From an uncultured Clostridia bacterium (lineage in GTDB: Bacteria > Aerophobota > Aerophobia > Aerophobales > B3-G15), in assembly GCA_964482715.1 (NCBI GenBank), contig CAYZYX010000007.1, positions 1 through 56,371 on the forward strand: a stretch of 56,371 nucleotides of DNA, written 5' to 3'. The position numbers and the translations under genes are program-made. Positions 8,979 through 54,250 of this stretch are shown here, piece after piece (the stretch's first letter is position 1; every line of letters starts with the position of its first letter). Under the pieces are notes generated by a model. That model saw only the letters and a program-made list of their open reading frames with translations. It did not search any database and had not been told where the DNA came from.

Positions 8979-9006
8979 ATCATAACAAATTTTTAACGTA
9001 TGTCAA
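8979..9006 (-). promoter_or_regulatory. sigma70 promoter of the TA operon
   Basis: TTGACA-16-TATGAT with extended -10 TG; downstream repeats GTATAACA at 8941-8948 and 8959-8966 may be operators. Confidence 0.65.
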
Positions 9007-9017
9007 TGATCTTTGAC

Positions 9018-9243
9018 CTGAGGTTGGGACACTTTTTCAAGTAGGTAAAGGTCCCGGATATCCCAAAGGAAGCCTCTTTTTGGCGAGCACTAAAACTTTT
9101 ACATGGTAGAAACTTTTGCACAGCCAAAAAGCGGAGGCCGAGCTGCACTAAAATTTTAAGTGAGATAAACCTCTTGCGAGGCCGTCTTCCGTGGGATATC
9201 CGGGACCCAGAAAAAAGCTGTGGGACAACTGTCCCAATCTCAG
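9018..9243. mobile_element. MITE, complete copy (226 bp)
   Basis: 14-bp TIRs CTGAGGTTGGGACA / TGTCCCAATCTCAG (1 mismatch); exact 8-bp flanking duplication TCTTTGAC (9010-9017, 9244-9251); no ORF of 60 aa or more; internal 16-bp perfect stem. Confidence 0.85.
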
Positions 9244-9289
9244 TCTTTGACCGGGTTAGCTGAATATGTTAATTATATAGAAAAAAGCC

Positions 9290-10150
9290 ATGTTACCTGA
9301 AGAAATATGCCAGGAAGTAGAAGAAATAAAAACTGATAAAATGCGAGGAGCAAGTTCTCTTGCTCTAAAGGCAGTGGGTGCGATAAAACTTCTGGCAGAG
9401 AAAAGCAAGGCAAAAAAAGAAGAAGATCTTTTAAGAGAATTACAAGAAATTAAGTTAGCACTTATCAGAGCAAGACCTGAGATGACATCGGTAACAAATA
9501 ATGTAGTTCGTGTTATTGATGAGGTCTTACGGGAATATAGAAAGTGGCCAGGGAGTTTAAGAGAACTTATAAAATCAATAACCGAAAGAAGAATCAGAGA
9601 ATATCAGATAGAGTGCATTAAAGCAGCAAAAAAAGCGATAGGAATAATAAAAGATAAAAGTACAGTAATGACCTGTAGCTACAGCTCAGTTATATGTAAT
9701 ACCCTTCGGATGGCTCTGGAACAAAAAAAGAGGATAAATATCCTGATAGCAGAGTCAAAGTTCGGTAATAAGAGTTACGGTAAGATCATATTAGACAGAC
9801 TCAATTTTATGGCAGGTTTTATTCAGCTTATTCCCGATGATGAGATAGAGAAAAATATCATACGGGTAACTACGGTCATAGTAGGAGCAGATTCTGTTCT
9901 TACTGATGGTTCCCTCATAAATGGTGTACCAACCCTCTTGCTGGCTAAGGCTGCAAAGAGAAACTCTGTTCCTTTCTACAGTGTTTGTGAAACCGCTAAG
10001 TTTGATATTCTTGGGAATTTAAGCAAAAATCTCCACCCGGCACCGGGTTTTGACCTTGTCCCACCTCAGTTTATTACTGCTTTTATCACAGAAAAGGGAG
10101 TAATTAAACCCTGGCAAATTGCAAAGGAGATTAAAGGTATAGAAAGATAA
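9290..10150 (+). CDS. eIF-2B alpha/beta/delta-family protein (aIF-2B-delta / R15P-isomerase-like)
   Basis: RGAS, ARPEM, VGADSV..DG..INGVPT, PFYSVCETAKF, FDLVPP..ITEKG. Confidence 0.85.
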   Translation: MLPEEICQEVEEIKTDKMRGASSLALKAVGAIKLLAEKSKAKKEEDLLRELQEIKLALIRARPEMTSVTNNVVRVIDEVLREYRKWPGSLRELIKSITERRIREYQIECIKAAKKAIGIIKDKSTVMTCSYSSVICNTLRMALEQKKRINILIAESKFGNKSYGKIILDRLNFMAGFIQLIPDDEIEKNIIRVTTVIVGADSVLTDGSLINGVPTLLLAKAAKRNSVPFYSVCETAKFDILGNLSKNLHPAPGFDLVPPQFITAFITEKGVIKPWQIAKEIKGIER

Positions 10151-10215
10151 AAAAATAAAATGTTCAGATTAATTAAAAGATATTTTACACAAGAACAAGT
10201 TTTAAACCTGAACTT

Positions 10216-11595
10216 TTATTCATAAGCAATTTTGATCTTGTTTTTTCCCTCTCTTTTAGCTTCATACATCGTTTTATCAGCAGTTCCAATCACGTCTCCA
10301 TTTATTGTTGAATCAGCCACCCCTATACTCAGAGTTATTTTATACTCTGAATATAACTTTCTGTAAACCTCTCTCTGGATTCTCTCAGCCACCTCTTTAG
10401 CTTCCTCCTTAGAGGTGTGAGGAAGAATTATCACAAATTCTTCACCTCCGTATCGATAAGCAGAATCAAGTTTTCGCAAACTGGAAATCAAAATCTCACC
10501 AAGAATTCTTAAGACCTTATCACCCTCAGCGTGGCCATAAATGTCGTTACACGATTTAAAATCGTCTATATCAAGATAGATTACCGAATAAACTTCATTA
10601 TACCTTTTTGCTCTCATTTTTTGCTCTTCCAGCTTTTCTTGAAGAGTCCTATAATTGTAAAGACCGGTGACTGGATCTCTCTGGGCCAGAAAACGCAGTT
10701 TCTCCTCCGCCTTAATTTTACCAATACCGGAAGCTATCTGGTCGGATAGGATTGTAAGGAGATCTCTATCCTCCCGGGAAAGTTTCTTTCCTTCTTTTAC
10801 AATAACCTCCAAAACTCCATAGAGATTGTCTTTACTTACAAGAGGCACAGCAAAAATTTGATGCAAATTATACTTCTTACAGAGATCAAGAGCATATTGG
10901 GTTAAGGGATGATTTTTTACATCTTCTACAAAAACGGGCTTCTTTTGAAAGGCAGCAAAAGCCCCTACCTTCCTCTCACCTTTCAGTACTTTCTGCTCTT
11001 TAATAGTCACACTTTCAAGTTCTGGAGGATAATTTATCTGTGCCGATGGAAATAGAACGTTTTTATCTGGATCATATACCAGGATATTTGCCAGGTCATA
11101 ATCTATCACTTTGGCTAAAGCTTCCAAAATTCTCCGGGAAAATTCGCTTATTCTCTTCGATAAATTAACCGCTTTTCCCAATTCAAAGTAAAAAATTCTG
11201 GTTCTTCTGAGCTCCTCCTCAAGTTTTTTCCTTTCTGTAATATCCACCACATTGCCGAGAATAGCTGTTTTCCCTCTGTACTGAACAAGGGTGGGGATAT
11301 TTTCCACCCACAATGTAGCGCCATTTTTTCTGATAACTTTAAGTTCATATCTTGAAGGAAGAGTGGAAACATCACCTTTCAATGCCTGCCGGGTCATTTG
11401 CTCCAACTTGTCTCGAAATTCAGGGGTAACAAGTTCAAGATAGTTCTTAGCAAGAAGTTCTTCCCGGGTGTAGCCTGACATTCTCTCCATAGTCCTGTTG
11501 ACAAATACAAACCTCCCATCCTGAAATATATAAATGCCACTTGTTGTATTTTCAATGAAAATCATATTTTCTTCTTTTACTTTATTTACCTCCAT
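10216..11595 (-). CDS. PAS-GAF-GGDEF diguanylate cyclase
   Basis: PAS ending in DITERK, GAF, DPVTGLYN, DIDDFK, RKLD I-site and GGEEF. Confidence 0.93.
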   Translation of the reverse strand: MEVNKVKEENMIFIENTTSGIYIFQDGRFVFVNRTMERMSGYTREELLAKNYLELVTPEFRDKLEQMTRQALKGDVSTLPSRYELKVIRKNGATLWVENIPTLVQYRGKTAILGNVVDITERKKLEEELRRTRIFYFELGKAVNLSKRISEFSRRILEALAKVIDYDLANILVYDPDKNVLFPSAQINYPPELESVTIKEQKVLKGERKVGAFAAFQKKPVFVEDVKNHPLTQYALDLCKKYNLHQIFAVPLVSKDNLYGVLEVIVKEGKKLSREDRDLLTILSDQIASGIGKIKAEEKLRFLAQRDPVTGLYNYRTLQEKLEEQKMRAKRYNEVYSVIYLDIDDFKSCNDIYGHAEGDKVLRILGEILISSLRKLDSAYRYGGEEFVIILPHTSKEEAKEVAERIQREVYRKLYSEYKITLSIGVADSTINGDVIGTADKTMYEAKREGKNKIKIAYE

Positions 11596-11616
11596 TTTCT
11601 TACTACCTTACCTAAT

Positions 11617-12528
11617 CTAAATTTTAACTCTCATAAAATCTTCGGCTATTTGCCAGTTAGGATAAGCTCTGATCTTTTCTTTTAACCTTTCGGTATCCCT
11701 GTATCTTCTGGAAATATGAGTTAAAATGACTTTTTTTGCCTTTATTTCATCGGCTGCGTCTATAATCTCTTTAATGGAGGCATGTTCATAATCATCAAAT
11801 TCTCCATTGTCAAAATAGGTACAGTCCTGAATAAGTAAATCCGCATCTCTGGCTAAATTCAAGAGATTCTGGCATATTTTTGTATCTCCGGAGTAAACAA
11901 CTTTTTTCCCTTTTGTTACCATACAAACTTCCTCTATAGTAATTTTTTTGCCTTCAAAAACCACTTCACCCTTCTCCTTTAGTTCTGCGTAGATTTTTCC
12001 CTGCACTGGCAGACCCAGTTTTTTTGCCTTTTCCTTATCTATCCGAAATTTCTCCTTTTCGACAAGACCATAGGCAACAGAAGGTAGGCCATGTTTAACA
12101 GGAGTAGAAACTATCTTAAACTCTTCGTTTTCCATCAGATCCTGTATTCTGTTTTCTTCTACTGGAACTTCTCTCATTATAACTTCAAATGACCTTTCAA
12201 TACCATTAAAATCAAGAATCTTTTTTAATTTTTTTACCTCAGGGGCAAAAATCTTCAGGGGCTTTGTTCTTCCTTCAAAACTCATGGAATCTACCAGACC
12301 GGGAAGTCCAAGAAAATGATCTCCATGCCAGTGAGTAATGAAGATATACTGAATCTTCATTAAATTCAAATTGGCAATAAGCATCTGTCTCTGGGTTCCT
12401 TCCCCGCAGTCAAATAGAAAACAAAACTCCTTTTCCCCTCGAAAGGCAATATGTATTGCTGGATGAGCTCTCTCTCTCGTTGGAATTCCAGCAGTAGTGC
12501 CTAAGAAGACAATCTCAATTTCAGCCAT
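11617..12528 (-). CDS. rnz: Ribonuclease Z
   Basis: FLGT, DCGEGTQ, THWHGDH, YSGDT, LTHISRRY. Confidence 0.93.
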   Translation of the reverse strand: MAEIEIVFLGTTAGIPTRERAHPAIHIAFRGEKEFCFLFDCGEGTQRQMLIANLNLMKIQYIFITHWHGDHFLGLPGLVDSMSFEGRTKPLKIFAPEVKKLKKILDFNGIERSFEVIMREVPVEENRIQDLMENEEFKIVSTPVKHGLPSVAYGLVEKEKFRIDKEKAKKLGLPVQGKIYAELKEKGEVVFEGKKITIEEVCMVTKGKKVVYSGDTKICQNLLNLARDADLLIQDCTYFDNGEFDDYEHASIKEIIDAADEIKAKKVILTHISRRYRDTERLKEKIRAYPNWQIAEDFMRVKI

Positions 12529-12551
12529 TAAAAATTTGCCTCACACAAACT

Positions 12552-12860
12552 TTAGTCATCTGGCTCCAATCTGTGGTATCTTTTTAGACGAATCAGGACC
12601 TCTTCCACCTCTTCTTTCTTATCTTGCTTTTTTAGAGGCTTAATCATTGCCAGAATCATATTTTCAACCATTTCTTGAACAAATCTGTTGAGAAATAACT
12701 TTTCTCCATTAACCTGTATTTCAAGTTCTGTTTTTCTTTCTTCTTGCATAAGTTTCTCCACAAAATTTACTATTTTGTTCACTTCATCCTATCTAAATAC
12801 CATTTCACGGGTCTTTATGTTCAGATCACATATTCCTGTAAGTTCCAGAATAAAAGGCTT
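12552..12860 (-). pseudogene. MobB-like remnant (C-terminal domain; expressible ORF 12552-12782)
   Basis: 76-aa ORF with VNGEKLFLNRFVQEM resembles the MobB C-terminal domain; in-frame upstream KPFILELTG..VFR is interrupted by TAG (12789-12791); no P-loop; follows mobA. Confidence 0.45.
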
Positions 12861-13459
12861 TTTTCTTTTGCTACCAGTTTTCGAGCTTTTTTCAGATCAT
12901 CAGGTGTGTTTACATTAAAGAATAAAAGCCAGGGAGGGGAAAACCTTTTAATTTCCTTTTCTTCTACGAATTTAACCTTTAGATAGGAAAAAATGCCCTG
13001 AATTTTGTTTTCTCCCCGCTCAAGTCTTTCCCTTATCACCGGCAAACAGTATTTCGAGTAAATGGCGTGGAGAGGTTCTATTCCCCGGGTGTGAGAAGGA
13101 AGTAAAACATGATAGTGAGGAGTAATACGGCGCATATAATCGATAAATTCCCCCTGTAAAAAAGGCATATCACAACCAAGAACAAAATTAAATTCCTCAT
13201 TGGAAAAGAAAAGACCAGAGTAAATTCCACCCAGAGGACCTCTTCCGGAAAAGACATCCTCCACCCATTCTACTTTCCCGCTTAACCTTTTATCAAGGGA
13301 AGGCTTTTTTCCAACCAGGATAATTCTCTCTCCCTTTCTTCTCGCCTTATCCACCTGCAAAATTACTCTTTCTAAAAGACAGTGCCTGCCAATTTTAAGA
13401 CCCGCCTTATCCCCACCAATTCTCCTGTTTTCTCCCCCAGTTAATATGAGAAAATTCAT
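12821..13459 (-). CDS. mobA: Molybdenum cofactor guanylyltransferase
   Basis: ILTGG..R.G.DK, GPLGG, GCDMPF, EPLHAIY, FNVNTPDD. Confidence 0.92.
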   Translation of the reverse strand: MNFLILTGGENRRIGGDKAGLKIGRHCLLERVILQVDKARRKGERIILVGKKPSLDKRLSGKVEWVEDVFSGRGPLGGIYSGLFFSNEEFNFVLGCDMPFLQGEFIDYMRRITPHYHVLLPSHTRGIEPLHAIYSKYCLPVIRERLERGENKIQGIFSYLKVKFVEEKEIKRFSPPWLLFFNVNTPDDLKKARKLVAKEKSLLFWNLQEYVI

Positions 13460-16149
13460 GGGTTAACTTTTTCCACCCTCACGGCACAGACTTTTAACTC
13501 AGGAATTTTAGCTATCGGATCAAGCGCATCAATAGTTAATATATTGCAGGCAGCTTCTCTAAAGTGAAAGGTCATAAACACCACACCTGGAGGAGACTTG
13601 TCAGTAACTTTTACCTTAGCTGTAACAGATCCCCTTCGGGAGAGGACTCTGGCTAAATCTCCCTGAGAAAGATCAAGAGATGAGGCATCCTGGGGATTAA
13701 TCTCCACCACCGCCTCCGGGTAAATCTCATTTATTCCTTTAACTCTACGGGTCATGGTTCCAGTGTGAAAATGAAATAAAACCCTACCCGTAGAGAGAAT
13801 AAAGGGGTAATCTCTGTCAGGGGTTTCTGCAGGTGGTTTGAAAGAAACAGGATGAAATCTTCCCTTACCTCTGGTGAATTTTTCTTTATGCAGATATAAA
13901 GTTCCCGGATGAGATTGATCAGGACAGGGCCATTGAAGGCCTTCTTTTTGCAGTCGGGAATACACGATTCCTCCGTAAATAGGAGTTAAAGATGCTATCT
14001 CATCCATAATTTCGGCGGGATGCTGGTAAGACATCGGGTACCCCATTTTTTCCGCAAGACAGCATATTATCTCCCAGTCAGCTTTAGCTTCTCCAGGTGG
14101 ATTTAGAGCTTTTCTTACCCGTTGAACGCGCCGCTCAGTATTGGTAAAGGTCCCTTCCTTTTCGGCAAAGCATGTAGCAGGAAGAACAAGATGGGCAAGC
14201 TGGGCTGTCTCAGAGAGAAAAATATCCTGAACTACAAGAAAATCGAGTTTCTGGAGAGCTCTTCTTGTTCTGAGAGAATTGGGGTCAGAAAGAACAGAAT
14301 TTTCTCCTACTATGTACATTCCCCTGATCTTTCCTTCCTCAATAGCATGGATCATTTCCACTACCGTAAGTCCCGGTTTATCCGGTAAGGACCTACCCCA
14401 GGCTTTTTCAAATTTTCTCCTTATAGTATAATTCTCAACACTCTGATAACCAGGAAATAGATTGGGAAGAGCACCCATATCGCAAGCACCCTGGACATTA
14501 TTCTGACCCCTGAGAGGATTCACCCCACTCGCCTCTTTTCCAACATTCCCACAAAGCATGGCCAGATTAGCAAGAGAGAGGACATTATCAGTTCCTGTTG
14601 TGTGCTGAGTTATTCCCATAGCATAAACTATGGAAGCTTTCTCTGCCCTGGCATAGATCTTTGCAGCTTCTATAATCTTTGAAGCTGGAACCCCGGTGAT
14701 TTTTTCTACTTTCTCGGGAGGATAATCTTTGAGAACCTTCCTTACAGACTCAAAACCCTCTGTACGTTTCTCAATAAATTCTCTGTCTTCAAGCCCTTTG
14801 TTAAGTATTACCCACATCATTCCATTAAAAAGGGCCACATCAGTGCCCGGTTTCTGTCTGAGCCAGATATGGGCAAAATCAGTAAGTTCTATTTTCCTGG
14901 GATCTGCCACAATGAGTTTTGCTCCCTTCCTGACAGCTTCTTTTATCTTCAGGGCAACAATGGGGTGGGTCTCCGAGGTATTAGAACCTGTAACCAGAAT
15001 ACATTCAGCCTGAGAAAGTTCAGCAATGGAATTTGTCATGGCTCCTGAACCAAAAGCTCTGGCAAGACCAGCCACAGTGGAAGCGTGACAGAGACGCGCA
15101 CAATGATCCACGTTATTGGTGCCAATAACTGCTCTCATGAATTTTTGAAAGAGATAGTTTTCCTCATTGGTACACTTAGCTGAGGAAAGTCCAGCCAGTG
15201 AATCTGGACCGTATTTTTCTTTAATGGCAAGTAAGTTGGAAGCTGCAAAATCAAGTGCTTCTTCCCAGGAAACTTCCTTGAATTTTTCCCCTTTTTTAAT
15301 CAGGGGACGGGCAAGTCTATCGGGTGAATTTATAAATTCAAAGCCAAATCTCCCCTTGGCACAAAGCCAACCCGAGTTAACTGGAGCATTCTCGGGTGAG
15401 GTAACCTTAACCACTTTATTATCTCTGGTATGCAAAATGATCTGACAGCCACATCCACAATAAGGACAGATGGTAACAGTTTTCTTCAATTCCCATTCTC
15501 TACCCTTGCCTTTTCTCTCTTTCTCCATTAAAGCTCCTACAGGACACACCGAAAGGCAATTTCCACAGAAAACGCAGGCTGTTTCAGTCATCGGCTTATC
15601 AAAACCTGTGCTTATTAAAGTCTTAAATCCTCGCCGGGCAAAGTCTAAAACCTCACACTGCTGAATGTTGCTACATACATTAACACAGCGACCACAGAGA
15701 ATGCACTTCCGGTTATCACGCTCAATAAAAGGATTATCGCTGATCAAGGGATAATTTATTTTCTCTCCCTCAAAACGAGATGAAGAAACGCCAAGTTCGT
15801 ATGCGTATTTTTCAAGCAAACAATCTCCACTCTTCTCACAGGTCATACAATCAAGGGGATGGTTAGAAATAAGAAGTTCCATAATTACTCTTCGCGCCCT
15901 CTTAACTCTTTCCGTATTGGTTTTAACCTCCATCCCATCTTTTACCGGATAGGAGCAGGAGGCAACGAGATTTTCTACTCCCTTAACTTCAACAAGACAT
16001 AGTCTGCAGGAGGCAAGAGGAGCAAGTCTTTCCTCATAACAAAGATGAGGAATTTCTATTCCTATCTTTTGAGCGGCCTCCAGTATGGTCATACCCTCTT
16101 CAACTGTAACTTTTTTCCCATCAATCCATATAGACACTTCTGCCATCAC
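13456..16149 (-). CDS. fdhF: Formate dehydrogenase alpha subunit (Mo/W-bisPGD, Cys-type) with NuoG-like N-terminal FeS domains
   Basis: 2Fe-2S, HPLDCMTC..C, 2x4Fe-4S, CPYCGCGC, active-site CARLCHAS, LRGQNNVQG. Confidence 0.95.
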   Translation of the reverse strand: MMAEVSIWIDGKKVTVEEGMTILEAAQKIGIEIPHLCYEERLAPLASCRLCLVEVKGVENLVASCSYPVKDGMEVKTNTERVKRARRVIMELLISNHPLDCMTCEKSGDCLLEKYAYELGVSSSRFEGEKINYPLISDNPFIERDNRKCILCGRCVNVCSNIQQCEVLDFARRGFKTLISTGFDKPMTETACVFCGNCLSVCPVGALMEKERKGKGREWELKKTVTICPYCGCGCQIILHTRDNKVVKVTSPENAPVNSGWLCAKGRFGFEFINSPDRLARPLIKKGEKFKEVSWEEALDFAASNLLAIKEKYGPDSLAGLSSAKCTNEENYLFQKFMRAVIGTNNVDHCARLCHASTVAGLARAFGSGAMTNSIAELSQAECILVTGSNTSETHPIVALKIKEAVRKGAKLIVADPRKIELTDFAHIWLRQKPGTDVALFNGMMWVILNKGLEDREFIEKRTEGFESVRKVLKDYPPEKVEKITGVPASKIIEAAKIYARAEKASIVYAMGITQHTTGTDNVLSLANLAMLCGNVGKEASGVNPLRGQNNVQGACDMGALPNLFPGYQSVENYTIRRKFEKAWGRSLPDKPGLTVVEMIHAIEEGKIRGMYIVGENSVLSDPNSLRTRRALQKLDFLVVQDIFLSETAQLAHLVLPATCFAEKEGTFTNTERRVQRVRKALNPPGEAKADWEIICCLAEKMGYPMSYQHPAEIMDEIASLTPIYGGIVYSRLQKEGLQWPCPDQSHPGTLYLHKEKFTRGKGRFHPVSFKPPAETPDRDYPFILSTGRVLFHFHTGTMTRRVKGINEIYPEAVVEINPQDASSLDLSQGDLARVLSRRGSVTAKVKVTDKSPPGVVFMTFHFREAACNILTIDALDPIAKIPELKVCAVRVEKVNP

Positions 16150-19268: not shown

Positions 19269-19281
19269 TAGCTTATCCTCC

Positions 19282-36742: not shown

Positions 36743-36770
36743 ATTATAAAGATTATTCACTATCTGTCAA
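36743..36770 (-). promoter_or_regulatory. sigma70 promoter of pckG
   Basis: TTGACA-16-TATAAT. Confidence 0.7.
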
Positions 36771-36781: not shown

Positions 36782-36845
36782 CTGGCAATTAGGACAGTTT
36801 TTACCTATACCTTTCTCTTCATGAGAAAAACTGTCCTAATTTCAT
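36782..36845. mobile_element. Mini copy of the MITE family
   Basis: Perfect inverted repeat AATTAGGACAGTTTTT / AAAAACTGTCCTAATT; the first ~37 nt match the reverse complement of the 54175-54212 end. Confidence 0.65.
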
Positions 36846-36853
36846 GAAACGGT

Positions 36854-44016: not shown

Positions 44017-44034
44017 CTCGGATTTATATTAATT

Positions 44035-44077: not shown

Positions 44078-44098
44078 AATAACCAGAATTTTCATCGC

Positions 44099-44174: not shown

Positions 44175-44178
44175 AGTA

Positions 44179-44251: not shown

Positions 44252-44268
44252 ATGGCAACAAAATTTTT

Positions 44269-44676
44269 TTATTCTGTCTCTTTATCTATTTTAGCAATTT
44301 CTTCTTCTATTTCCACCCTGTGGGTAGAAGGGCTCATTCTGCATTCTCCGTTAAAAAAAGCACCCTCAGCAATGGTCAAATCAGAGGCCTTCACCTTTCC
44401 TTCCAGACTACCGGTAGGGTAAATCTCTACTTTACCCTCACAATCAATATCTCCTTTTACTTTACCCGAGATAATTACTGTCGCTGCTTTAATGTTAGCA
44501 TTTACAATAGCATCTTCACCAATTATAAGACTTCCACCTGTTTCAATCTCCCCCTCAAACTTGCCATCTATCCTTACCCCTTCTCTATCCTTTAAGGTTC
44601 CTTTGAACTCTGTCCCTGGACCTATTAAACTATTGGTCTTTCCCTCCACTTTTTTACTTTTTTTTCTTTTTAACAT
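44269..44676 (-). CDS. Bactofilin (polymer-forming cytoskeletal protein)
   Basis: IG.GT.F.G, RIDG.FEG, I.EGAFFNGEC.M beta-helix repeats. Confidence 0.93.
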   Translation of the reverse strand: MLKRKKSKKVEGKTNSLIGPGTEFKGTLKDREGVRIDGKFEGEIETGGSLIIGEDAIVNANIKAATVIISGKVKGDIDCEGKVEIYPTGSLEGKVKASDLTIAEGAFFNGECRMSPSTHRVEIEEEIAKIDKETE

Positions 44677-44689
44677 AAACTTATTCCTT

Positions 44690-45670: not shown

Positions 45671-45697
45671 CCAGATACGAATGCCCCTTGTTTCTTT

Positions 45698-45796
45698 AAG
45701 ATACCATTTATATAAAACTTGTCAATATGAGGCTTCCCCGGCATTGGGACATTTATTTTGTCTTCTCTTTTACAAGAAGATTTAATGTGCTATAAT
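45698..45796. promoter_or_regulatory. Divergent promoters (M23 operon / polA) with a solo MITE-family TIR between them
   Basis: Minus TTGACA(45720-45725)-16-TATCTT; plus TTTACA-16-TATAAT; CCGGCATTGGGACA at 45738-45751. Confidence 0.55.
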
Positions 45797-45813
45797 TTGA
45801 AAAGAGGGGAAAA

Positions 45814-48402
45814 TTGATGTCAATTAAAAAAGGAAAAATAGTCTTAATAGATGGAAATAGCCTTCTTTACCGTTCTTTTTACGCTCTTCCTCCGTTGGCT
45901 ACGAAAGAAGGAATTCCTACCGGGGGCTTATATGGTTTTACACGAATTCTCCTGAAACTCTTAAGAGAGGAAAATCCTGATTTTCTCGGCTGTGCCTTTG
46001 ATAAAGGAAAAAAAACTTTCCGCCATAAAAAATGGGAGGATTATAAAGCCACACGACCAGAAACCCCTTCAGAGCTTTCAAAGCAAATCATCTTAATAAA
46101 AGATATTCTCCAGGGTTTCAGAATTCCCTTTTTTGAGGATGAAGAATACGAAGCTGATGATATTTTAGCCACTTTAGCCAGGAAAGCTGAAAAAGCTGGA
46201 TTGGATGTCGAAATATTTACCGGCGACAAAGATATTCTTCAAATACTATCTCCCTCCATCAAGGTGGTAAGGTTTAAAAAGGGAATATCTCAGAAAGATG
46301 TGTTTGATCCCCAAAAAGTAAAAGAGGAGTTTGGAGTAACACCCGAACAGATACCAGATTATCTTGCCCTTGTAGGTGATACATCAGATAATATTCCTGG
46401 TGTTCCAGGAATAGGTCCCGTAACGGCTGTAAAATTGATTCAGCAATACGGTAGTCTGGAAAAGATCCTGGATAATCTGGAAAAACTGCCCCCCAAAATT
46501 GCAGGTAAAATAAGAGAAAATACGAAAAAGGCAAAGTTAAGTAAGAGATTGTCAACGGTAATTTGTCAGGTCCCTGTGGAATTAAACCTGGAAAAGCTAA
46601 AGGTAAAAGCTCCCGATAAAGAGAAGTTGCTTGATATCTTTAAAAAGCTGGAGTTCAAGGAACTCATTGAGAAACTTGGTCTTTCTGACTGTCAAAGTAG
46701 TGAAAAACTACCTGGAAGTAAAGAAATTGAAAAGACTAACCATAAAATTGAAGTCAAGCTAAGACAGGAGCCGCTTTTTTTATGGTGGGAAAATGAAGGT
46801 AACAGGAGACGGCTTTTTATTTCTTCTTCCAGAGGAAAATCTTTTGTTTTTTCTCTGGATGAAGATTCCTTCGACAAAGCGACTTTCTCCCAGCTTAAAA
46901 ACTTACTGGAATCCGGGAAATATCTAAAGATAGGTCATGATCTAAAAAATTTGCTCGTTAAACTAAAAATTTTGGGAATAGGGATCAATTCAATAAAATT
47001 CGATACCGCAGTTGCCGCTTATCTCATCAATCCCTCCTCTGGCAATTATTCTCTTGAGAACCTTTCTCGCTATTATTTAGGAGAAAACATAAGCTCGACA
47101 GGGGAAAACGGCAGTATCAAAATTAAGTTTATCAAGAAACTTTACCCTGTTCTGGAAACTCAGCTCCAGGATAAAGGGATGAAAAAACTCTTCTATGAAA
47201 TAGAACTGCCATTAATAGAAGTACTGGCCGAGATGGAGCTGCGAGGAATAAAGGTAGACCCTACAGTTCTTAAAAGTCTCTGTCAACAGATTAGAAAGAT
47301 GCGTAAAAAGACAGAAGAGGAAATATATACGGAAGTGGGAGAAAGATTTAACCTCAATTCCCCCCAGCAACTTGGCAAAATACTTTTTGAGAAACTTAAT
47401 CTACCCCTGATAAAAAAGAGCAAAACAGGTTACTCGACCAGCGAAAGAACTCTTCAGACTTTATCTCCTCTCTGTGAAACTCTAAACAAAATTCTTGATT
47501 ACAGACACCTATTTAAATTAGAAACTTCCTACATTCAACCTTTATCCTCTATGATTAACCCTTCTACAGGGAGAATCCACACCTGTTTCAACCAGCTGGG
47601 AACCAACACCGGCAGACTTTCCTCCTCTAACCCGAATCTTCAGAATATTCCTGTTCGAGGACATCTGGGAGATTTAATAAGAAAAGCTTTTATAGCGGAA
47701 GAGGGATGTTTATTTATTTCTGCTGACTATTCACAGATCGAGCTTCGGATTTTAGCCCATCTGTCCGGGGATTCAAATCTTATCTCGGCTTTTTTACAGG
47801 GAGAAGATATACACAGGGAAACTGCCGTTGAAATATTTAATTGTTTACCTCTGCAGGTTAACTCCCGGATGAGAAGAATTGCAAAAATGGTTAATTTTGG
47901 CATCATCTATGGAATAAGTCCCTTTGGGCTGGCTCGTGACCTTGGAATTTCCGAAAAGGAAGCTCAGGAGTATATTGAGCGGTATTTCTCACGTTATTCG
48001 GGAGTTAAAAGATACATAGAAAAAACATTAGAGCAGGCACATAAAAAAGGCTACGTAACCACTTTACTGGGAAGGAGGAGGTATCTTCCCGAAATTAATT
48101 CCAAAAATAAAAGAAGGAGAAAATTTGCCGAACGAATGGCTATAAATTCTCCAATTCAGGGTTCAGCAGCCGATCTGATTAAGATAGCCATGCTGAATAT
48201 CTACCGAAGACTGAAAGAGGAAAACCTCCCGGCCTGGTTGATTCTCCAGATCCATGATGAGCTCATCCTGGAGGTAACAGAAAATCAGATAAACAGAGTC
48301 AGAAAAATTGTTAAAGAAGAAATGGAAAATGCCCTGAAACTTTCCGTTCCTCTGGTGGTAGATACTAAAGTTGGTAAAAACTGGGCAGAAATAAGTCATT
48401 GA
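45814..48402 (+). CDS. polA: DNA polymerase I
   Basis: 5'-3' exonuclease (DGNS, EADD, GDTSDN), GRLSSSNPNLQNIP, ADYSQIELR, KMVNFGIIYG, QIHDEL. Confidence 0.98.
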   Translation: MMSIKKGKIVLIDGNSLLYRSFYALPPLATKEGIPTGGLYGFTRILLKLLREENPDFLGCAFDKGKKTFRHKKWEDYKATRPETPSELSKQIILIKDILQGFRIPFFEDEEYEADDILATLARKAEKAGLDVEIFTGDKDILQILSPSIKVVRFKKGISQKDVFDPQKVKEEFGVTPEQIPDYLALVGDTSDNIPGVPGIGPVTAVKLIQQYGSLEKILDNLEKLPPKIAGKIRENTKKAKLSKRLSTVICQVPVELNLEKLKVKAPDKEKLLDIFKKLEFKELIEKLGLSDCQSSEKLPGSKEIEKTNHKIEVKLRQEPLFLWWENEGNRRRLFISSSRGKSFVFSLDEDSFDKATFSQLKNLLESGKYLKIGHDLKNLLVKLKILGIGINSIKFDTAVAAYLINPSSGNYSLENLSRYYLGENISSTGENGSIKIKFIKKLYPVLETQLQDKGMKKLFYEIELPLIEVLAEMELRGIKVDPTVLKSLCQQIRKMRKKTEEEIYTEVGERFNLNSPQQLGKILFEKLNLPLIKKSKTGYSTSERTLQTLSPLCETLNKILDYRHLFKLETSYIQPLSSMINPSTGRIHTCFNQLGTNTGRLSSSNPNLQNIPVRGHLGDLIRKAFIAEEGCLFISADYSQIELRILAHLSGDSNLISAFLQGEDIHRETAVEIFNCLPLQVNSRMRRIAKMVNFGIIYGISPFGLARDLGISEKEAQEYIERYFSRYSGVKRYIEKTLEQAHKKGYVTTLLGRRRYLPEINSKNKRRRKFAERMAINSPIQGSAADLIKIAMLNIYRRLKEENLPAWLILQIHDELILEVTENQINRVRKIVKEEMENALKLSVPLVVDTKVGKNWAEISH

Positions 48403-49433
48403 AAAACTTCAGGATTGACACAATTTTCAGGAATTTCACCTTGAAGGTATTTGCTAATTCCGCGAGCTAACATCTCAATCCCATGGGACGCTGTTTCTCG
48501 AGATGCTCCTGCCAGGTGAGGAGTTAAAACTACATTGGACAAGCTTAAAAGAGGACATTTAGTGGAGGGGGGTTCGGGATCGAAAGTGTCAAGAGCTGCC
48601 CCTTTCAATTTACCTTCCTTCAAGGCTTTATAGAGTGCCTCATAATCTACAAGTCCTCCTCTTGCCGTGTTGATAAGATAAGCTCCGGGACGCATCATTG
48701 ATATTTCCCTTTCTCCAATTAATTTATAGGTTTCGGGAGTAAGACGGGCATGGAGACTGATAATATGAGATTCCCTTAGAAGTTTCTCCAATTCAACCAA
48801 TCGAGCGCCAAAAAGCTCCACTTCTTTTTTCTCCACATAAGGATCAAACACCAGAACCTCGACATTAAAAGGTGAAAGTAACTGACAAACTCTTTTCCCT
48901 ATAAGCCCAAAACCAATAAGCCCCACTTTCTTCCCTGCCAGTTCTTCTGCACATTTGTCGTATTCGTAGAAATCCCCTCTCCAGATACCTTTTTTAAGAG
49001 CTTGATGGGCAGGAATAATTGGTTTTAAAAGACACAAAATCATGGCCAGGGTAAACTCAGCAGCTGCCTGCTTATTTCTACCTGGAGTGTTTAAAACAGG
49101 AATTTTCCTCTGGGTTGCTGCTTTGATATTGACGTTCACCACACCTCCCCGACAACAGGCTATTATCTTTAATTTAGGACAACCCCAAATTACCCGACGG
49201 GTGACAGGGGCAAGGTGAGTTATTAAAATCTCAGCGTCCCTTGCCACTGTCAAAACTTCCTTTTCATTGCCAATGTATTCTTTTACTTCACCGTCAGAGA
49301 TAAGGGGCTGACGAGGCCAGTTTAACTTTAGTCCCGTAAGTTTAATATCCTCCCCATCTCCTAAATATCTGATTAATATTTTTTCTATTAACTCATTTTT
49401 CAAAAACAAATCTCCAATTATGGCCACTCTCAT
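48396..49433 (-). CDS. D-isomer-specific 2-hydroxyacid dehydrogenase
   Basis: GLIGFGLIG, SLHARL, INTARG, LDTFDPEP, TPHLAG. Confidence 0.92.
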   Translation of the reverse strand: MRVAIIGDLFLKNELIEKILIRYLGDGEDIKLTGLKLNWPRQPLISDGEVKEYIGNEKEVLTVARDAEILITHLAPVTRRVIWGCPKLKIIACCRGGVVNVNIKAATQRKIPVLNTPGRNKQAAAEFTLAMILCLLKPIIPAHQALKKGIWRGDFYEYDKCAEELAGKKVGLIGFGLIGKRVCQLLSPFNVEVLVFDPYVEKKEVELFGARLVELEKLLRESHIISLHARLTPETYKLIGEREISMMRPGAYLINTARGGLVDYEALYKALKEGKLKGAALDTFDPEPPSTKCPLLSLSNVVLTPHLAGASRETASHGIEMLARGISKYLQGEIPENCVNPEVFQ

Positions 49434-49446
49434 TCCTTCTCACCTC

Positions 49447-50226
49447 TTAATCCATCAGTAATCCACCATTCACTTCAATGGTTTCGCCTGTAATGTAGTC
49501 TGCTCTGGAAGAGGCAAGGAAAACCACCACATTGGCCACATCCTGAGGAGTTCCTAATCTTCCAAGAGGAGTATCACTTAACCAGCGATCTTTCTCCTTA
49601 GCATAAAAGGGTTCTGTCATATCAGTCCTGACTCTACCTGGATCAACACAGTTCACACATATCCCGTAGAGAGCTACTTCCCGGGCTAAGGAGCGGGTAA
49701 AAGCATGTACTCCTGCTTTGGAGGCGGCATAAGCTGCATGACCTCTTGATCCTCTCTTTCCCACAAAGGAAGCTATGTTTATTATTTTCCCTGTTTTTCT
49801 TTTTATCATATGGGAAATCGTGGCTTTACAGCAGTTAAAAACACCTTTCAGGTTCACACTCATAAGATAGTCCCATTCTTCCTCACTGGTGTTAACCACT
49901 TCCTTTTCCAGATAGACACCAGCATTGTTTACCAGAATATCTATTCTACCGAAAAAATCCACAATTTTATTAATCATTCTTTCCACATCTCTCAAAGAAG
50001 AAACGTCAGCCTGAATTGGAAAACCCTTCCTTCCTCGTTTTTTAACTAAATTCACCACCTCCAGGGCAGCCTCCTCATGGTGAGCAAAATTTACCACCAC
50101 ATCTGCTCCCTCCTCAGCCATAGATAGACATATGGCTTTACCTATCCCTCTGCTTCCTCCAGTTACCAGAGCTATTTTTCCCTTCAGCAACATATTCTGC
50201 TTTTCAACCCCTTTAAAATCTTTCAA
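49447..50226 (-). CDS. Short-chain dehydrogenase/reductase (FabG-like)
   Basis: TGGSRGIG, NNAG, YAASK, VNGG; start may be at MLLKGK (50193). Confidence 0.92.
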   Translation of the reverse strand: MKDFKGVEKQNMLLKGKIALVTGGSRGIGKAICLSMAEEGADVVVNFAHHEEAALEVVNLVKKRGRKGFPIQADVSSLRDVERMINKIVDFFGRIDILVNNAGVYLEKEVVNTSEEEWDYLMSVNLKGVFNCCKATISHMIKRKTGKIINIASFVGKRGSRGHAAYAASKAGVHAFTRSLAREVALYGICVNCVDPGRVRTDMTEPFYAKEKDRWLSDTPLGRLGTPQDVANVVVFLASSRADYITGETIEVNGGLLMD

Positions 50227-51440
50227 AAGAAGTCCTTAAGCCACTCCTTTATTTTAACACCTAATTTTTCCTTTAAAGCAAGCTCTTCACGTCTTTTTAT
50301 TCCGTACAAAAGTAAACCCACAGCTGTAGCATATGTGGGACTTAAGAGTTTGGAAGGAGACTTTATTCTGGGATAGCCAATTCTGGCTGGCAAACCTAAC
50401 TTTTCCTCTGCCGTCTCTTTTATCCCGGGAAGTAAGGAGCACCCTCCTGTTAAAACCGCACCAGCGCTGATGAGTCCCTTATAACCACTTACTCTAAGTT
50501 CAAGATCTACAAGCTCAAATAATTCTTCTATTCTAAACTGGATAATCCGGGCAAGGATTGATCTTTTCACCTTAGATTTTCCTCTACCGGCGATTCGCTC
50601 CACTTCTAAATTTTCATCTTTATCCAGATAATCAACCGCAGCTATTCCGTGATTTATCTTGATTTTTTCAGCTTCTTCTCTACTGATGTGAAGTCCAACG
50701 GCAATGTCATTAGTTAAATGATTTCCTCCTACGGCAATTACTTTGGTAAATCTCAGTCCTTCTTTTAAAAAAATAGCGAGGTCCGTGGTTCCGCCTCCTA
50801 TATCAAGGAGAACCACTCCCATATCCTCCTCCTGGGGGAGTAAAGTAGAAAGCCCGGAAGCCAGAGGTTGCAGTACAAATCCTTCCAGCTCATAACCTGC
50901 TCCAACAACACTATCCTCTATGTTCCTGCAACAACCTGAAGAAGCCGTAATTAGATGAACCTTAACCTGAAGCTGGACTCCTCTCATTCCCAGAGGATTT
51001 TTAATCTCACCCTGACCGTCAATGATGTAGTCCTGGGGAAGAACGTGGATGATCTCTCTTTCTGGAGGGAGAACAATAGAAGATGCCTGTTTCAGGGCTT
51101 CCTCTATATCTCTGGTTTCGATTATCTTTTCAGGATCTGCTATTCTCACAAAACCACTATTGTCTCTTCCTTCTATATGAGAACCAGCAATACTAACCCA
51201 CAGCTTTTTAATTCTCTTTCCCGCATCCAGTTCGGCTATCCTTATCACCTCTTTGATCCGGGAAGAGAGCTCGCGTACATCGGTCACCACACCTTTAGTC
51301 ACTCCTTCTGAAGAAACCGTTCCTGAACCCAGAATGTTGAGTTTCCCATCTTTAACCGTTCCCAGCACGGCACATATTTTGCTGGTTCCAATGTCCAGAC
51401 CCACTATTAAATCCTGTTTCCTGACTTTTAGCTTCTTCAT
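50223..51440 (-). CDS. ftsA: Cell division protein FtsA
   Basis: GLDIGTSK, DIGGGTT, AEKIK, LTGG, C-terminal amphipathic helix KEWLKDFF. Confidence 0.96.
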   Translation of the reverse strand: MKKLKVRKQDLIVGLDIGTSKICAVLGTVKDGKLNILGSGTVSSEGVTKGVVTDVRELSSRIKEVIRIAELDAGKRIKKLWVSIAGSHIEGRDNSGFVRIADPEKIIETRDIEEALKQASSIVLPPEREIIHVLPQDYIIDGQGEIKNPLGMRGVQLQVKVHLITASSGCCRNIEDSVVGAGYELEGFVLQPLASGLSTLLPQEEDMGVVLLDIGGGTTDLAIFLKEGLRFTKVIAVGGNHLTNDIAVGLHISREEAEKIKINHGIAAVDYLDKDENLEVERIAGRGKSKVKRSILARIIQFRIEELFELVDLELRVSGYKGLISAGAVLTGGCSLLPGIKETAEEKLGLPARIGYPRIKSPSKLLSPTYATAVGLLLYGIKRREELALKEKLGVKIKEWLKDFF

Positions 51441-52174
51441 TTATTATATGAAACAACGATCTGTTTTTCAAATCTAAGATCTATACGGTTAATTTTTTCT
51501 TTCCTCTTTTTTGTGTCTTCCAGAATCTCAGGAACATAGACAAGATGGCTGTAATCAGGAGAAATACCCAAAATAAGCTGGATGCCATTATCAAGCAAGA
51601 TAATCATTCCACGATTTGATTCTTCCAGTTTTATTCTTTTTACCTGCAGGTTTAATTTTTGACACACCAATAAAGCATTTAAAGCCTTGATGATTTTTTC
51701 TTTCCTTTTCAGCACATCTACCCCTTCAATAAGAGGTAATCCAGGTTTTCCCTCTGCTTCCCTCAAAATAACACCCTCTTTGTCCACTTCCCAGACTTTT
51801 TGACCATCTGCCACACAGGCATAAGGTTTTCTCTCAGTTATACTTATTATTAAGGTAGAAGGCAACCTCTTCTCAATTACAACTTTTTTCACCAGGCCAT
51901 GAGCAAGAATTTTTTCTTTTATCCGGTTAACATCAAGTTTAAATATGGAAGTTTCAGGAGGGATAAGGTTTGGCTGAAGAATTTCAGAACTTGTTAATCT
52001 TTCAAGTCCTTTTACTTCAACATTCTTTACATAAAAGTAAGGTAAAGATAGTACTGATAGAGCAGTATAAAGGATCAACCCTACCAGAACTGCCAGAAAA
52101 ACAAAAACATCCCTTTTTCTCTTTTTCTTCCTGGACAAATAAGAAAAAGATACATACCCTGCAAACCTGGCCAT
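51437..52174 (-). CDS. ftsQ: Cell division protein FtsQ/DivIB
   Basis: Basic N-terminus, TM helix, POTRA domain, C-terminal IDLRF; lies between ddl and ftsA. Confidence 0.88.
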   Translation of the reverse strand: MARFAGYVSFSYLSRKKKRKRDVFVFLAVLVGLILYTALSVLSLPYFYVKNVEVKGLERLTSSEILQPNLIPPETSIFKLDVNRIKEKILAHGLVKKVVIEKRLPSTLIISITERKPYACVADGQKVWEVDKEGVILREAEGKPGLPLIEGVDVLKRKEKIIKALNALLVCQKLNLQVKRIKLEESNRGMIILLDNGIQLILGISPDYSHLVYVPEILEDTKKRKEKINRIDLRFEKQIVVSYNK

Positions 52175-52175
52175 C

Positions 52176-53105
52176 TCAATTTCGCTTTCTCCTGAGAGCC
52201 CTCTGAATTATTTTATCCACCAGCTGGTGAAACTGTATCCCCTCTGCCCTGGCTGCCTTAGGAAAAAGGCTGATCTTCGTCATTCCCGGAATGGTATTGA
52301 TTTCCAGAAGATAGACCTCACCTTCCCTCCAGATCATGTCTACACGAGCAAAATCTCTACATCCAAGACTTTTGTAAGCCTTTAAGGCTACATTTTGAAT
52401 TTTACCATAATCTTCAGGAGCAAAATGCGCTGGAACAATGTACTGACTTTTTCCTTGTGTATATTTGGTCTCATAATCGTAAAACTCATGCTCCGGGATA
52501 ATCTCTATTACAGGAAGTGCCCTTGGCTCAGGGTCGTCCAGAATTCCCACCGTCACCTCTCTACCCTGAATATACTCTTCAATTAAAACGTATTTCTTAT
52601 CATAGGAAAATGCTTTTTGTAAAGCAGGGAAAAGCTCTTTTTTCTCTTTTACCAGACTTACGCCCAGGGTAGACCCGCTTCGTCCAGGTTTCACTATAAA
52701 AGGAAAACGGAGAAAAGAAAAATCCTCAGAGCGAAATTCCACTTCATTATCAATAACCAAATATTCAGGTTGCCCGAGACCTTCAGCTTTCCATATCTTT
52801 CTACTGCTCTTTTTATCTATGGCAAGTGCACTGGCTAAAACTCCGGAACCTGTATAAGGAATATTTAAAGTTTCCAGCCACCCCTGAATGGTTCCATCCT
52901 CTCCACCGGGACCATGTAAGGCAATGAATACAGCATCTACCCTTTCTTTTAGAAGTGAAAATAGCCTTTGATCTTCAGCAGGGTCTATACTTAACGTGCG
53001 ATATCCTGCTTTCCAAAGGGCTTCTTCTATTGCCTCCCCACTTTTTAAGGATATATCCCTTTCAGGAGATTTACCTCCTTTCAATACACATATCTTCTCT
53101 TTCAT
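52176..53105 (-). CDS. ddl: D-alanine--D-alanine ligase
   Basis: GG.SPERDISL.SG, LHGPGGEDG, YDYETKY, EINTIPGMT. Confidence 0.97.
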   Translation of the reverse strand: MKEKICVLKGGKSPERDISLKSGEAIEEALWKAGYRTLSIDPAEDQRLFSLLKERVDAVFIALHGPGGEDGTIQGWLETLNIPYTGSGVLASALAIDKKSSRKIWKAEGLGQPEYLVIDNEVEFRSEDFSFLRFPFIVKPGRSGSTLGVSLVKEKKELFPALQKAFSYDKKYVLIEEYIQGREVTVGILDDPEPRALPVIEIIPEHEFYDYETKYTQGKSQYIVPAHFAPEDYGKIQNVALKAYKSLGCRDFARVDMIWREGEVYLLEINTIPGMTKISLFPKAARAEGIQFHQLVDKIIQRALRRKRN

Positions 53106-53109
53106 TATG

Positions 53110-54018
53110 TCAAATTATCTCTACTTCCGGCTCAAGAAGTATGTTAAATTTCTCCTTAACCTTCTCTCTTACCTTCTCTATAAGCTCTATTATATCTCGA
53201 GCTGTAGCCTTACCTTTGTTAATTATAAAATTCCCGTGCTGGAAAGATATCTGCGCATCACCTACACGCATACCCAAACATCCCGTATTTTGAATGAGAT
53301 AACCTGCTGAATAAAAAGGAGGATTCTTAAATATACAACCCGCTGAAGGAAAGGAGAGAGGTTGGGTCTGGATTTTTCTCTCTGTTGCTTTCTGGATACG
53401 TGAAATTATTTTTTCTTTTTTATCGGGGAAAAGTTTCAGTTTAACCTTGGTAAGCACCAGGCTTTTATCTTCCATAAAAATACTACTTCGATAACCAAAT
53501 TTTATCTTATCTCGAGACAGAACAAATTCCCTGTTATTTATAAAGTTATTTGTAGCTATAACTTTTGCCCATATAATCCTCTCTGAAAGAGCTTCACCAA
53601 AAGCACTGGCATTTCTAACCACAGCACCACCTATGGTTCCAGGAATACCAGCCAGAGATTCCAACCCACTCAATCCTTCCTTTGCCGCAAAATCAATCAA
53701 AACCGGTAAATCCACCCCTGCTCCAGCCAGAACCTCATCTCCATCTCTTTCTATCTTCTTAAATTCCCCTCCAAGTTTAATTATTACTCCCCGAAATCCT
53801 TCATCGCGAAAAAGAAGCTTGCTCCCATTACCTATCACAAGGAAAAGAAGCTTTCTCCGAAAGCAAAAATCAATAACGGTCCTGAGATCATCACAATCTT
53901 CAGGCACCACAAAAAAATCTGCTTTCCCCCCGGTCTTCATAGAAGTAAGTTCTCTAAGTGACTGCCCTCTAATTACCTTTCCCTTGATACTCAATCTTCG
54001 CTGTTCCGTTATCTGCAT
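53110..54018 (-). CDS. murB: UDP-N-acetylmuramate dehydrogenase
   Basis: GG.A, GNGS, GIPGTIGG, FGYRSS, SAGCIFKNP, HGNFIIN, LEPEV. Confidence 0.96.
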   Translation of the reverse strand: MQITEQRRLSIKGKVIRGQSLRELTSMKTGGKADFFVVPEDCDDLRTVIDFCFRRKLLFLVIGNGSKLLFRDEGFRGVIIKLGGEFKKIERDGDEVLAGAGVDLPVLIDFAAKEGLSGLESLAGIPGTIGGAVVRNASAFGEALSERIIWAKVIATNNFINNREFVLSRDKIKFGYRSSIFMEDKSLVLTKVKLKLFPDKKEKIISRIQKATERKIQTQPLSFPSAGCIFKNPPFYSAGYLIQNTGCLGMRVGDAQISFQHGNFIINKGKATARDIIELIEKVREKVKEKFNILLEPEVEII

Positions 54019-54052
54019 ATCAATCCTCTCTCTTTCAATTTGAAGTTGGTTT

Positions 54053-54081
54053 ATTGTAGCCTAACTGAAAAAAGTAGTCAA
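54053..54081 (-). promoter_or_regulatory. sigma70 promoter of murB-ddl-ftsQ-ftsA
   Basis: TTGACT-17-TACAAT. Confidence 0.65.
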
Positions 54082-54093
54082 GAGCAACCTTCA

Positions 54094-54212
54094 CTGAAAT
54101 TAGAATATTCTTATTATAGATAAAAGCTCCCGGGGAAAGATTTTCCCTTAATTTACCCTGAGATACCCGGGAGCCTACGGAGAAAGTATAAGTAAAACTG
54201 TCCCAATGTCAG
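54094..54212. mobile_element. MITE family copy (119 bp, degenerate left end)
   Basis: Right end AACTGTCCCAATGTCAG (16/17 identical to 9227-9243); left end CTGAAATTAGAATA; internal GCTCCCGGG/CCCGGGAGC stem; CCTTCA on both flanks. Confidence 0.7.
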
Positions 54213-54222
54213 CCCTTCAAAT

Positions 54223-54250
54223 TTGACATTCTTGTGACTATTTATAACAT
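54223..54250 (+). promoter_or_regulatory. sigma70 promoter of the diguanylate cyclase
   Basis: TTGACA-16-TAACAT. Confidence 0.55.

Follow-up and report, generated by a model that had tools for sequence, protein, structure and literature searches.

The DNA studied here (the window, 56,371 nt in full) is contig C7 of the genome G000 (1.565 Mb in 54 contigs, 39.9% GC), assembled from an uncultured bacterium, and in four places it carries copies or remnants of a small repeated element beside gene promoters. The original prediction, made from the window itself, had described them as MITEs (miniature transposable elements with inverted repeats; family 1 in the following) whose ends recur 10-12 nt upstream of sigma70 -35 boxes, and had proposed promoter-targeted insertion. 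At all four sites a spacing of 10-12 nt between the tip of the terminal inverted repeat (TIR) and a TTGACA or TTGACT can be read directly from the sequence, and each of these -35 boxes is paired with a -10 at 16-17 nt, as had been stated. Tip distances are counted in this way, from TIR tip to -35, throughout. An independent consensus scan ranks the window promoters among the best promoter-like sites of positions 36500-54400. According to Pfam, the neighbouring genes encode a PIN and MazE-type pair, PEPCK_GTP, Peptidase_M23, polA, MurB and a PAS-GAF-GGDEF protein.

Table 1. Family-1 copies in the window, their target-site duplication (TSD) and the promoters beside them.
Feature	Position	Strand	Details
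Full-length family-1 MITE, 226 bp	9018..9243		TIRs CTGAGGTTGGGACA... / ...TGTCCCAATCTCAG; long hairpin
Left 8-bp TSD copy TCTTTGAC	9010..9017		8/8 identical to 9244-9251
Right 8-bp TSD copy TCTTTGAC	9244..9251
vapBC promoter	8979..9006	-	-35 TTGACA (9006-9001), 16-nt spacer, -10 TATGAT (8984-8979); -35 lies 3 nt past the TSD and 11 nt from the tip (TGTCAA 9001-9006, TIR from 9018)
Internally deleted family-1 element, 65 bp, TIR-TIR hairpin	36782..36846 (right end approximate)		Right TIR with one extra base, which places the end at ~36846
pckG promoter	36743..36770	-	TTGACA-16-TATAAT; 11 nt from tip (TGTCAA 36765-36770)
Solo degenerate family-1 TIR	45738..45757	+	4/20 mismatches
M23 peptidase promoter	45698..45725	-	TTGACA-16-TATCTT; 12 nt from tip (TGTCAA 45720-45725)
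Family-1 element, 119 bp	54094..54212		Degenerate left TIR, good right TIR (1 mismatch); promoter on each side
murB promoter	54053..54081	-	TTGACT-17-TACAAT; 12 nt from left tip (AGTCAA 54076-54081)
Diguanylate cyclase promoter	54223..54250	+	TTGACA-16-TAACAT; 10 nt from right tip (TTGACA 54223-54228)

We first define the element. The family-1 consensus is a 20-nt TIR, CTGAMATTGGGACASTTTTT, and every match to it in G000 was listed; gene positions in this genome come from a crude map of open reading frames (1490 ORFs, 91% coding). Eighteen inverted TIR pairs were found, spanning 48-294 bp. Perfect 8-bp TSDs flank four of them (on C5, C7, C22 and C51: TTCCTGCC, TCTTTGAC, GAATCTAT and TTCAAGAG, the second being the window copy), and one further pair has a TSD matching at 7 of 8 positions. 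Internal sequence is common to the copies at 76-91%, and nearly all solo motifs run on into MITE-internal sequence. The full-length window copy folds to one hairpin (-50.3 kcal/mol, z = -7.3); no Rfam family matches it above noise. With paired TIRs and 8-bp TSDs at hand, the earlier identification is borne out: family 1 is a genuine MITE of ~226 bp (range ~225-235). About 55 intergenic regions of G000 hold at least one family-1 end, and the well-matching copies are all intergenic. In the TSD-bearing copies the TSD lies between the tip and the -35, which follows 3 nt past it and on one side only, so that the -35 is outside the element.

Two of the shorter window copies show traces of a TSD by eye: possible decayed copies GGATGGTC and AAACGGTC (5/8) around the 65-bp element, and an at most decayed one (6/7) around the 119-bp element. 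Within the latter, the tip CTGACA is followed after 16 nt by TATACT (54185-54212, minus strand), a promoter-like arrangement that reads into the element and is not family-wide.

MITE copies occur in both orientations relative to the promoter: a copy on C49 presents its A-type end to it, the window copy and a copy on the public metagenome contig L104 their B-type end. Of the ends that could be classified, 18 of 25 A-type and 5 of 19 B-type ends are promoter-adjacent (Fisher P = 0.0055); 39 of the 83 could not be assigned to a type. The L104 copy also bridges C18 (at its end) and C30 (at its start), which indicates that TIRs found at contig ends are assembly breaks at a repeat and not a hidden insertion sequence (IS). 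Six short elements, on C6, C11, C19, C23 and C24 and at 54094-54212 of the window, have a promoter at both tips. All six lie between divergent genes, and the five outside the window are without TSD (C23 and C24 by eye). As ~1 in 6 promoters is occupied, the number of double hits is about what independence predicts.

Two unusual copies deserve mention. On L116 (1307-2019), family-1 TIRs bound a 713-bp variant with an unrelated AT-rich interior, parts of which are also present on two G002 contigs; no transposase ORF was found in this variant. On C35 of G000 (5210-5640), a family-1 MITE lies between 96%-identical 74-bp repeats resembling tandem tRNA genes, with its tip 11 nt from TTGCGT-17-TAAAAT.

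Next, we examined the distance between TIR and -35 over the whole genome. The motif of the original prediction is present three times in the window, where 0.03 occurrences are expected, and 28 times in the genome. With up to four mismatches, the consensus has 154 matches (16, 25, 24, 18 and 71 at 0, 1, 2, 3 and 4 mismatches, respectively). Among the 83 matches with at most three mismatches, 42 have a TTGAC starting 9-14 nt past the tip, distributed over these six distances as 1, 17, 16, 5, 1 and 2 ends. The peak is narrow: 38 of the 42 fall at 10-12 nt, and the 40 nt past the tips contain just two further TTGAC. For intergenic positions drawn at random, the probability of such a TTGAC is 0.0107 (about 1%), giving a binomial P of ~1e-57; the distance peak proposed from the window thus recurs genome-wide, and the case for it is much stronger there than in the window. 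The promoter-adjacent share is 22/41 at no more than one mismatch and 38/65 at no more than two. Roughly a dozen of the 41 ends lacking TTGAC are false matches inside long ORFs.

The sites at this distance look like functional promoters. At 38 of the 42 a TANNNT follows 15-19 nt downstream of the TTGAC, at 40 the gene that comes next has the orientation of the promoter, and the median distance from tip to start codon is 78 nt. Occupied hexamers are TTGACA (29), TTGACT (10), TTGACG (2) and TTGACC (1), a spectrum like that of unoccupied promoters. In the target flank, apart from a mild excess of A 2-4 nt before the hexamer, no added preference was seen. Promoter-adjacent ends are present in 41 of 55 intergenic regions with a match of at most three mismatches; these 55 are what remains of 64 listed regions (50 positive) after removal of nine kept solely for promoter-adjacent four-mismatch matches. 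By type, the 64 comprise 27 divergent, 26 tandem, 8 contig-end and 3 convergent regions. Even among the 71 four-mismatch matches, 13 have TTGAC at 10-13 nt as against ~0.8 expected. Most of the promoter-adjacent matches of this class are probably genuine relics and, because the class exceeds chance near TTGAC, the degenerate solo TIR at 45738 is likely a real relic as well.

If insertion is aimed at promoters, these should exist where the element does not. We compared orthologous loci from other genomes of the same taxonomic family. The pckG promoter, TTGACAGATAGTGAATAATCTTTATAAT at -75 in G000, has clear counterparts at -77, -79 and -113 in G001, G002 and G006, none of them preceded by a TIR core; no counterpart was seen in G003, and the G007 contig is too short to show one. 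The murB promoter (TTGACTACTTTTT.CAGTTA.GYTACAAT) is nearly identical in 6/6 relatives' loci and the M23 promoter (TTGACAA.TTT....G.AAATG.TAT.TT) is kept in 7/7, and at neither locus did the relatives show a family-1 TIR core in the sequence available, up to 260 nt upstream. Since all three promoters are kept in element-free related genera, pre-existing host promoters were evidently the target.

The element itself is restricted in distribution. Exact TIRs number 14 in G000, 23 in G004 (another genus of the same family), one in G002 and one in G010, and are absent from the 57 other genomes searched. TTGAC stands at 10-12 nt from 8 of 14 ends in G004 and from the single G002 end, and in one public Candidatus Aerophobetes metagenome-assembled genome (MAG) 12 of 23 ends are promoter-adjacent; as this MAG is possibly the same genome as G004, the two are counted as one replicate. 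Insertion sites in G004 differ from those in G000, and the G004 murB and M23 promoters are free of copies.

Two observations concern these other genomes. A gene at C19:16116 of G000 and its orthologues on L114/L140 (74% nucleotide identity) each have a family-1 TIR ~95-105 nt upstream with differing interiors, a pattern that suggests independent insertions at the same promoter. At the G004 murB locus (L160), ~40-190 nt upstream, there is a distinct ~38-nt repeat ending in ...GCCCCCTCAATTAGCTTGA. It is present in two copies, the second directly abutting the murB -35, and 11 nt of it (CCTCAATTAGC) stand elsewhere in G004 between a family-1 tip and TTGACT, taking up the whole gap.

Examination of the distal ends of family-1 copies revealed a second family with the same habit. 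Several of them adjoin a different TIR (CTCCAGTTTCGGRAAAAA / CTCCAGTTTCGGRAAAAATT, core TTTCGG), which we call family 2 and which includes MITEs of 86-260 bp and an IS of 1.7 kb. Its copies lie on G000 contigs C2, C5, C6, C8, C11, C12, C13 and C17 and further on C24, C28, C32, C33, C36, C38 and C49, none being in the window. Of 34 intergenic family-2 ends in G000, 19 have a TTGAC 7-11 nt past the tip (1, 2, 9, 6 and 1 ends at the successive distances) and no other TTGAC occurs within 30 nt; with a chance expectation of 0.0085 per end, P is ~7e-31. A -10 is present at 17 of the 19, and 11 of 20 distinct ends in G002, G004, G007, G010 and G013 are promoter-adjacent. Among nine family-2 pairs, one has a candidate TSD matching at 6/6 and one at 7/8 positions.

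Both families met at one promoter on C5. Outwards from this promoter come 3 nt, a TSD, the family-1 MITE, the other TSD copy and the family-2 MITE, whose two outermost tip bases are shared with that TSD copy. Family 2 was therefore the first to insert there, at 9 nt, and family 1 followed at 11 nt. Counted over both families, 61 distinct -35 sites are marked, and 51 (35 + 16) of 246 intergenic TTGAC-N16-18-TANNNT sites are occupied.

Family 2 has an autonomous member. On C191 of G004 (L179:4-1716), TIRs at 4-25 and 1695-1716 enclose one ORF of 444 amino acids, and a GntR-like gene has its TTGACA-16-TACAAT 9 nt from the right tip. In Pfam the protein falls under PF01609 (E = 1.4e-8); its closest NCBIfam models are IS4 and IS701, below all cut-offs (64 vs 152 bits), and at residue 347 it carries YEARWSIEVMFEYLK, which we take to be the IS4-type YREK signature. 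We regard it as a putative divergent IS4/IS701-like DDE transposase. It is rare: 5.8 billion proteins contain only nine clusters of relatives, none of them named. Homologues of ~52% identity are present in three other genomes of the order, and decayed pieces of the gene lie beside family-2 TIRs in G000 (C33:5056-5307, C38:3261-3377).

We favour, with a probability of roughly 0.85, the reading that the MITE family inserts in a promoter-targeted manner upstream of sigma70-type -35 boxes. Family 1 is a non-autonomous cut-and-paste transposon of DDE type whose 8-bp staggered target lies 2-4 nt upstream of the -35 in a pre-existing sigma70-type promoter, and its transposase would be supplied in trans. 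The tip thus lies 10-12 nt from the -35, with the promoter pointing away from the element, and insertion takes place in both orientations with one end favoured. The data show the transposon nature, the fixed distance, the host origin of the promoters and the recurrence in a second genus. Copies would then decay by internal and distal deletion, leaving promoter-proximal solo TIRs; deletions that extend into the promoter would be purged by selection, which presumably is why its side is spared. If two divergent promoters are both hit, the copies may collapse to short TIR-TIR hairpins without TSDs, and the both-sided mini elements may accordingly represent two independent insertions followed by deletion of the intervening DNA.

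Several points weigh against this reading. No TTGAC lies 9-14 nt from any end in 14 of the 55 element-bearing intergenic regions, and 13 of the 18 TIR pairs have no clear TSD (decayed or absent). No transposase of family 1 was found in G000, G002, G004, G010 or public TIR-bearing genome and metagenome contigs. The empty sites available are between genera; no within-species empty allele was found, as contigs of four sequencing runs (X3, X4, X6 and X13, compared over window positions 2000-21900) stop at the 9018-9243 MITE and none spans it. Lastly, the distance from tip to -35 is independent of spacer length (rho = 0.03). This lack of covariation indicates that the distance is set from the -35 and not from the -10, and it suits a transposase that reads the -35 directly no less than one that meets it bound by sigma.

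The last point leads to the question of what the transposase recognises. It could read TTGACA as bare DNA, without touching RNA polymerase or sigma, possibly through the likeness of the hexamer to the TIR core TTGGGACA, with which the flank TGTCAA forms an imperfect inverted pair. Besides the spacer independence, the match between the hexamer spectra of occupied and unoccupied promoters agrees with such direct reading, which we consider a serious possibility, yet short of an even chance. What speaks against it is that intergenic TTGAC sites with a -10 are occupied in 35 of 246 cases and those without in 7 of 229 (Fisher P = 7e-5, calculated from a hand count of 34 and 8 occupied sites), and that ends also lie, by eye, at the right distance from degenerate -35s (TTGCGT, TTGGCA, TTGCCA) with good -10s. 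Nor is there extra preference in the 10 nt upstream of the hexamer, and mimicry of the TIR cannot cover both families, since the core of family 2 is TTTCGG and its target place is the same. For these reasons, because two families with different TIR cores converge on one place, and because such a model was proposed for TnGBS, we lean slightly towards a transposase that recognises the -35 region as held by RNA polymerase and sigma. Sequence alone cannot separate guidance by polymerase from direct reading of the hexamer.

Another explanation, named already in the original prediction, is that the 20-nt motif is a site for a transcription factor or UP-like element and its occurrences a regulon. It would fit that many solo motifs of 0-2 mismatches keep a constant position with respect to the -35. 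Against this, perfect 8-bp TSDs flank paired inverted copies, nearly all solo motifs extend into the MITE interior, and copies break assemblies as repeats do. Genes downstream of occupied promoters are functionally unrelated, the motif is missing from the pckG, murB and M23 promoters where related genera have their orthologues, and the difference between G004 and G000 sites disfavours a conserved regulon. The regulon is thereby largely refuted and very improbable.

Random intergenic insertion, with selection removing harmful copies, would account for good copies being all intergenic, as insertions at the 2239 coding TTGAC sites of G000 would be lost anyway. It is, however, refuted by the distance histogram, for a selective filter cannot yield a peak three nucleotides wide that chance would produce at 1%, and the peak recurs in another genus; we give it hardly any credence. 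Least probable of all is that the element carries an outward -35 and creates promoters, as some IS do and as the TGTCAA inside the conserved terminus of an IS256-like relic in the window might suggest: the hexamer is outside the TSD and on a single side, the 10-12 nt that make up the gap are not the same in each copy, and relatives without the element keep their promoters at the same distance from the start codon, which refutes the idea for the three window promoters compared across genera.

We return to promoter-targeted insertion and the enzyme behind it. The original prediction had linked family 1 to the Mutator-like elements ISLre2 and TnGBS; this found no support, since no such transposase was found in G000 or the element-bearing relatives and the spacing is 10-12 and not 15-17 nt. 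Its suggestion to identify the cognate transposase likewise led to none, Mutator-like or otherwise. The search of G000 and relatives used the profiles PF06782, PF00872, NF033572, NF033529, PF01609, PF01610 and PF00665. In G000, G002, G004 and G010 (incomplete MAGs), PF06782 had no match and NF033572 and NF033529 nothing above cut-off; the PF00872 match is an IS256-like fragment whose TIRs differ from those of family 1. The PF01609 genes found carry TIRs of other kinds (family 2, IS1182-like, IS1380-like). When seven transposase proteins were compared with G000 by tblastn, all that matched were relics of family 2 and of the IS256-like element. Eight long intergenic regions with TIRs contain 52 frames that reach 45 amino acids; Pfam, run on 48 of them, recognised nothing but pieces of host genes and, below threshold, a single ISL3 match. 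Scans of the public genome and metagenome collections for the TIR (44 and 70 stretches) gave MITE copies, solo ends and chance matches in unrelated taxa, with no autonomous copy.

Individual candidates were rejected as well. L133 and L082 proved to be host genes behind solo TIRs, the IS256-like relic of the window and C260 of G004 have termini different from family 1, and the inverted repeats (IRs) of ISKra4-like elements in G022 are unlike its TIR. The IS256-like relic spans 19839-20550, with a Transposase_mut fragment at 20044-20430 (minus strand), and the end of a second copy, at 56228-56371, runs off the contig. The conserved left terminus of this IS holds TGTCAAGTCCAAA, an outward -35-like hexamer that belongs to the IS and is not a targeted promoter.

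Among conceivable parents, a relative of the co-resident family-2 IS4/IS701-like enzyme may be the missing transposase, a possibility we rate at a little under even odds. The TIRs of the two families have 9 of 20 bases in common by eye, and the start of the family-1 TIR (CTGA/CTGAC) presumably resembles how IS10 and IS50 end. The lead towards an ISL3-like parent is weak, and such a parent on the whole unlikely: the right end of an ISL3-like element of G010 (CTGAAACTTGGCCAAATTTTT) has five mismatches to the family-1 TIR, chance level in that much DNA, and the ISL3 C-terminal match beside a TIR on C34 is weak, below cut-off and in the wrong orientation. The 8-bp TSD of family 1 agrees with the TSD length that we assume for the ISL3 family. 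A Mutator-like transposase appears more unlikely still.

How does family 1 compare with known systems? According to PMC3942029, the insertion sites of group p-MULT 3 (TnGBS, ISLre2) and of the ISKra4 group lie 15-17 bp upstream of sigmaA -35 boxes; p-MULT elements have IRs of 18-39 bp with a terminal C, direct repeats of 8-9 bp and an orientation governed by unequal IRs, and for TnGBS an RNA-polymerase-guided model was proposed and the element likened to yeast Ty elements. Family 1 resembles TnGBS and ISLre2 in its fixed distance upstream of a -35 whose promoter stays intact and points away, and also in its terminal C, ~20-nt TIR, 8-bp TSD and orientation bias, features that are not family-specific. 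It differs from them in its peak at 10-11 nt (range 9-14) and in being a gene-less MITE. No ISLre2/UPF0236-type transposase was found in G000, G002, G004 and G010, and the host is uncultured, with public relatives among Candidatus Aerophobetes and not Firmicutes. The ISKra4 group (p-MULT 4) likewise targets promoters, has near-perfect IRs and is found with promoters on either side (PMC3942029), and family 1 too occurs in both orientations; within the order, such transposases occur only in G022, and there the IRs are unlike the family-1 TIR.

Outside the Mutator-like elements, parallels are partial. IS4/IS701-like enzymes are encoded by co-resident family 2 with the same targeting, and their connection to family 1 is inferred only; no promoter targeting by the IS4 and IS701 families was found in the open-access literature. 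Correia, ERIC, RUP and BOX elements are, like family 1, small, multicopy, intergenic, TIR-bounded hairpins without genes. A 2024 MITE review, in its section 3.3 on insertion-site preferences (PMC10969869), treats intergenic location and gives no fixed promoter distance, and passages of PMC11602168 name no such element either; in the open-access literature as a whole we found no MITE or non-Mutator IS with such specificity. Yeast Ty3 and Ty1 also aim their integration at promoters through the transcription machinery. As eukaryotic retroelements directed to Pol III promoters, they resemble family 1 in mechanism only.

Among bacterial transposases, aiming upstream of promoters had so far been known from the Mutator-like ones alone (TnGBS, ISLre2, ISKra4), and how it works is unsolved. 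New here are the candidate phylum, the MITE form, the different spacing and a family with an IS4/IS701-like transposase, which provide independent systems to compare; the transposase of family 2 raises the interest beyond the original finding. Tentatively, promoter aiming may have arisen outside the Mutator superfamily as well: a rare IS4/IS701-like YREK clade would dock on the sigma70-held -35 and cut 2-4 nt upstream, 5-7 bp closer than TnGBS, and it or a relative would move family 1. We put this combined proposal below an even chance. On this reading the two families would have spread to about one in five consensus-type promoters of a streamlined genome of 1.6 Mb. If two unrelated enzymes indeed read the same feature, the guide is likely to be a factor of the host, for instance sigma region 4 or the C-terminal domain of alpha. 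The elements account for many contig breaks in these MAGs, and a transposase with so precise a safe-harbour preference could serve as a tool. For the organism itself, which is unculturable, they are natural tags for 61 promoters.

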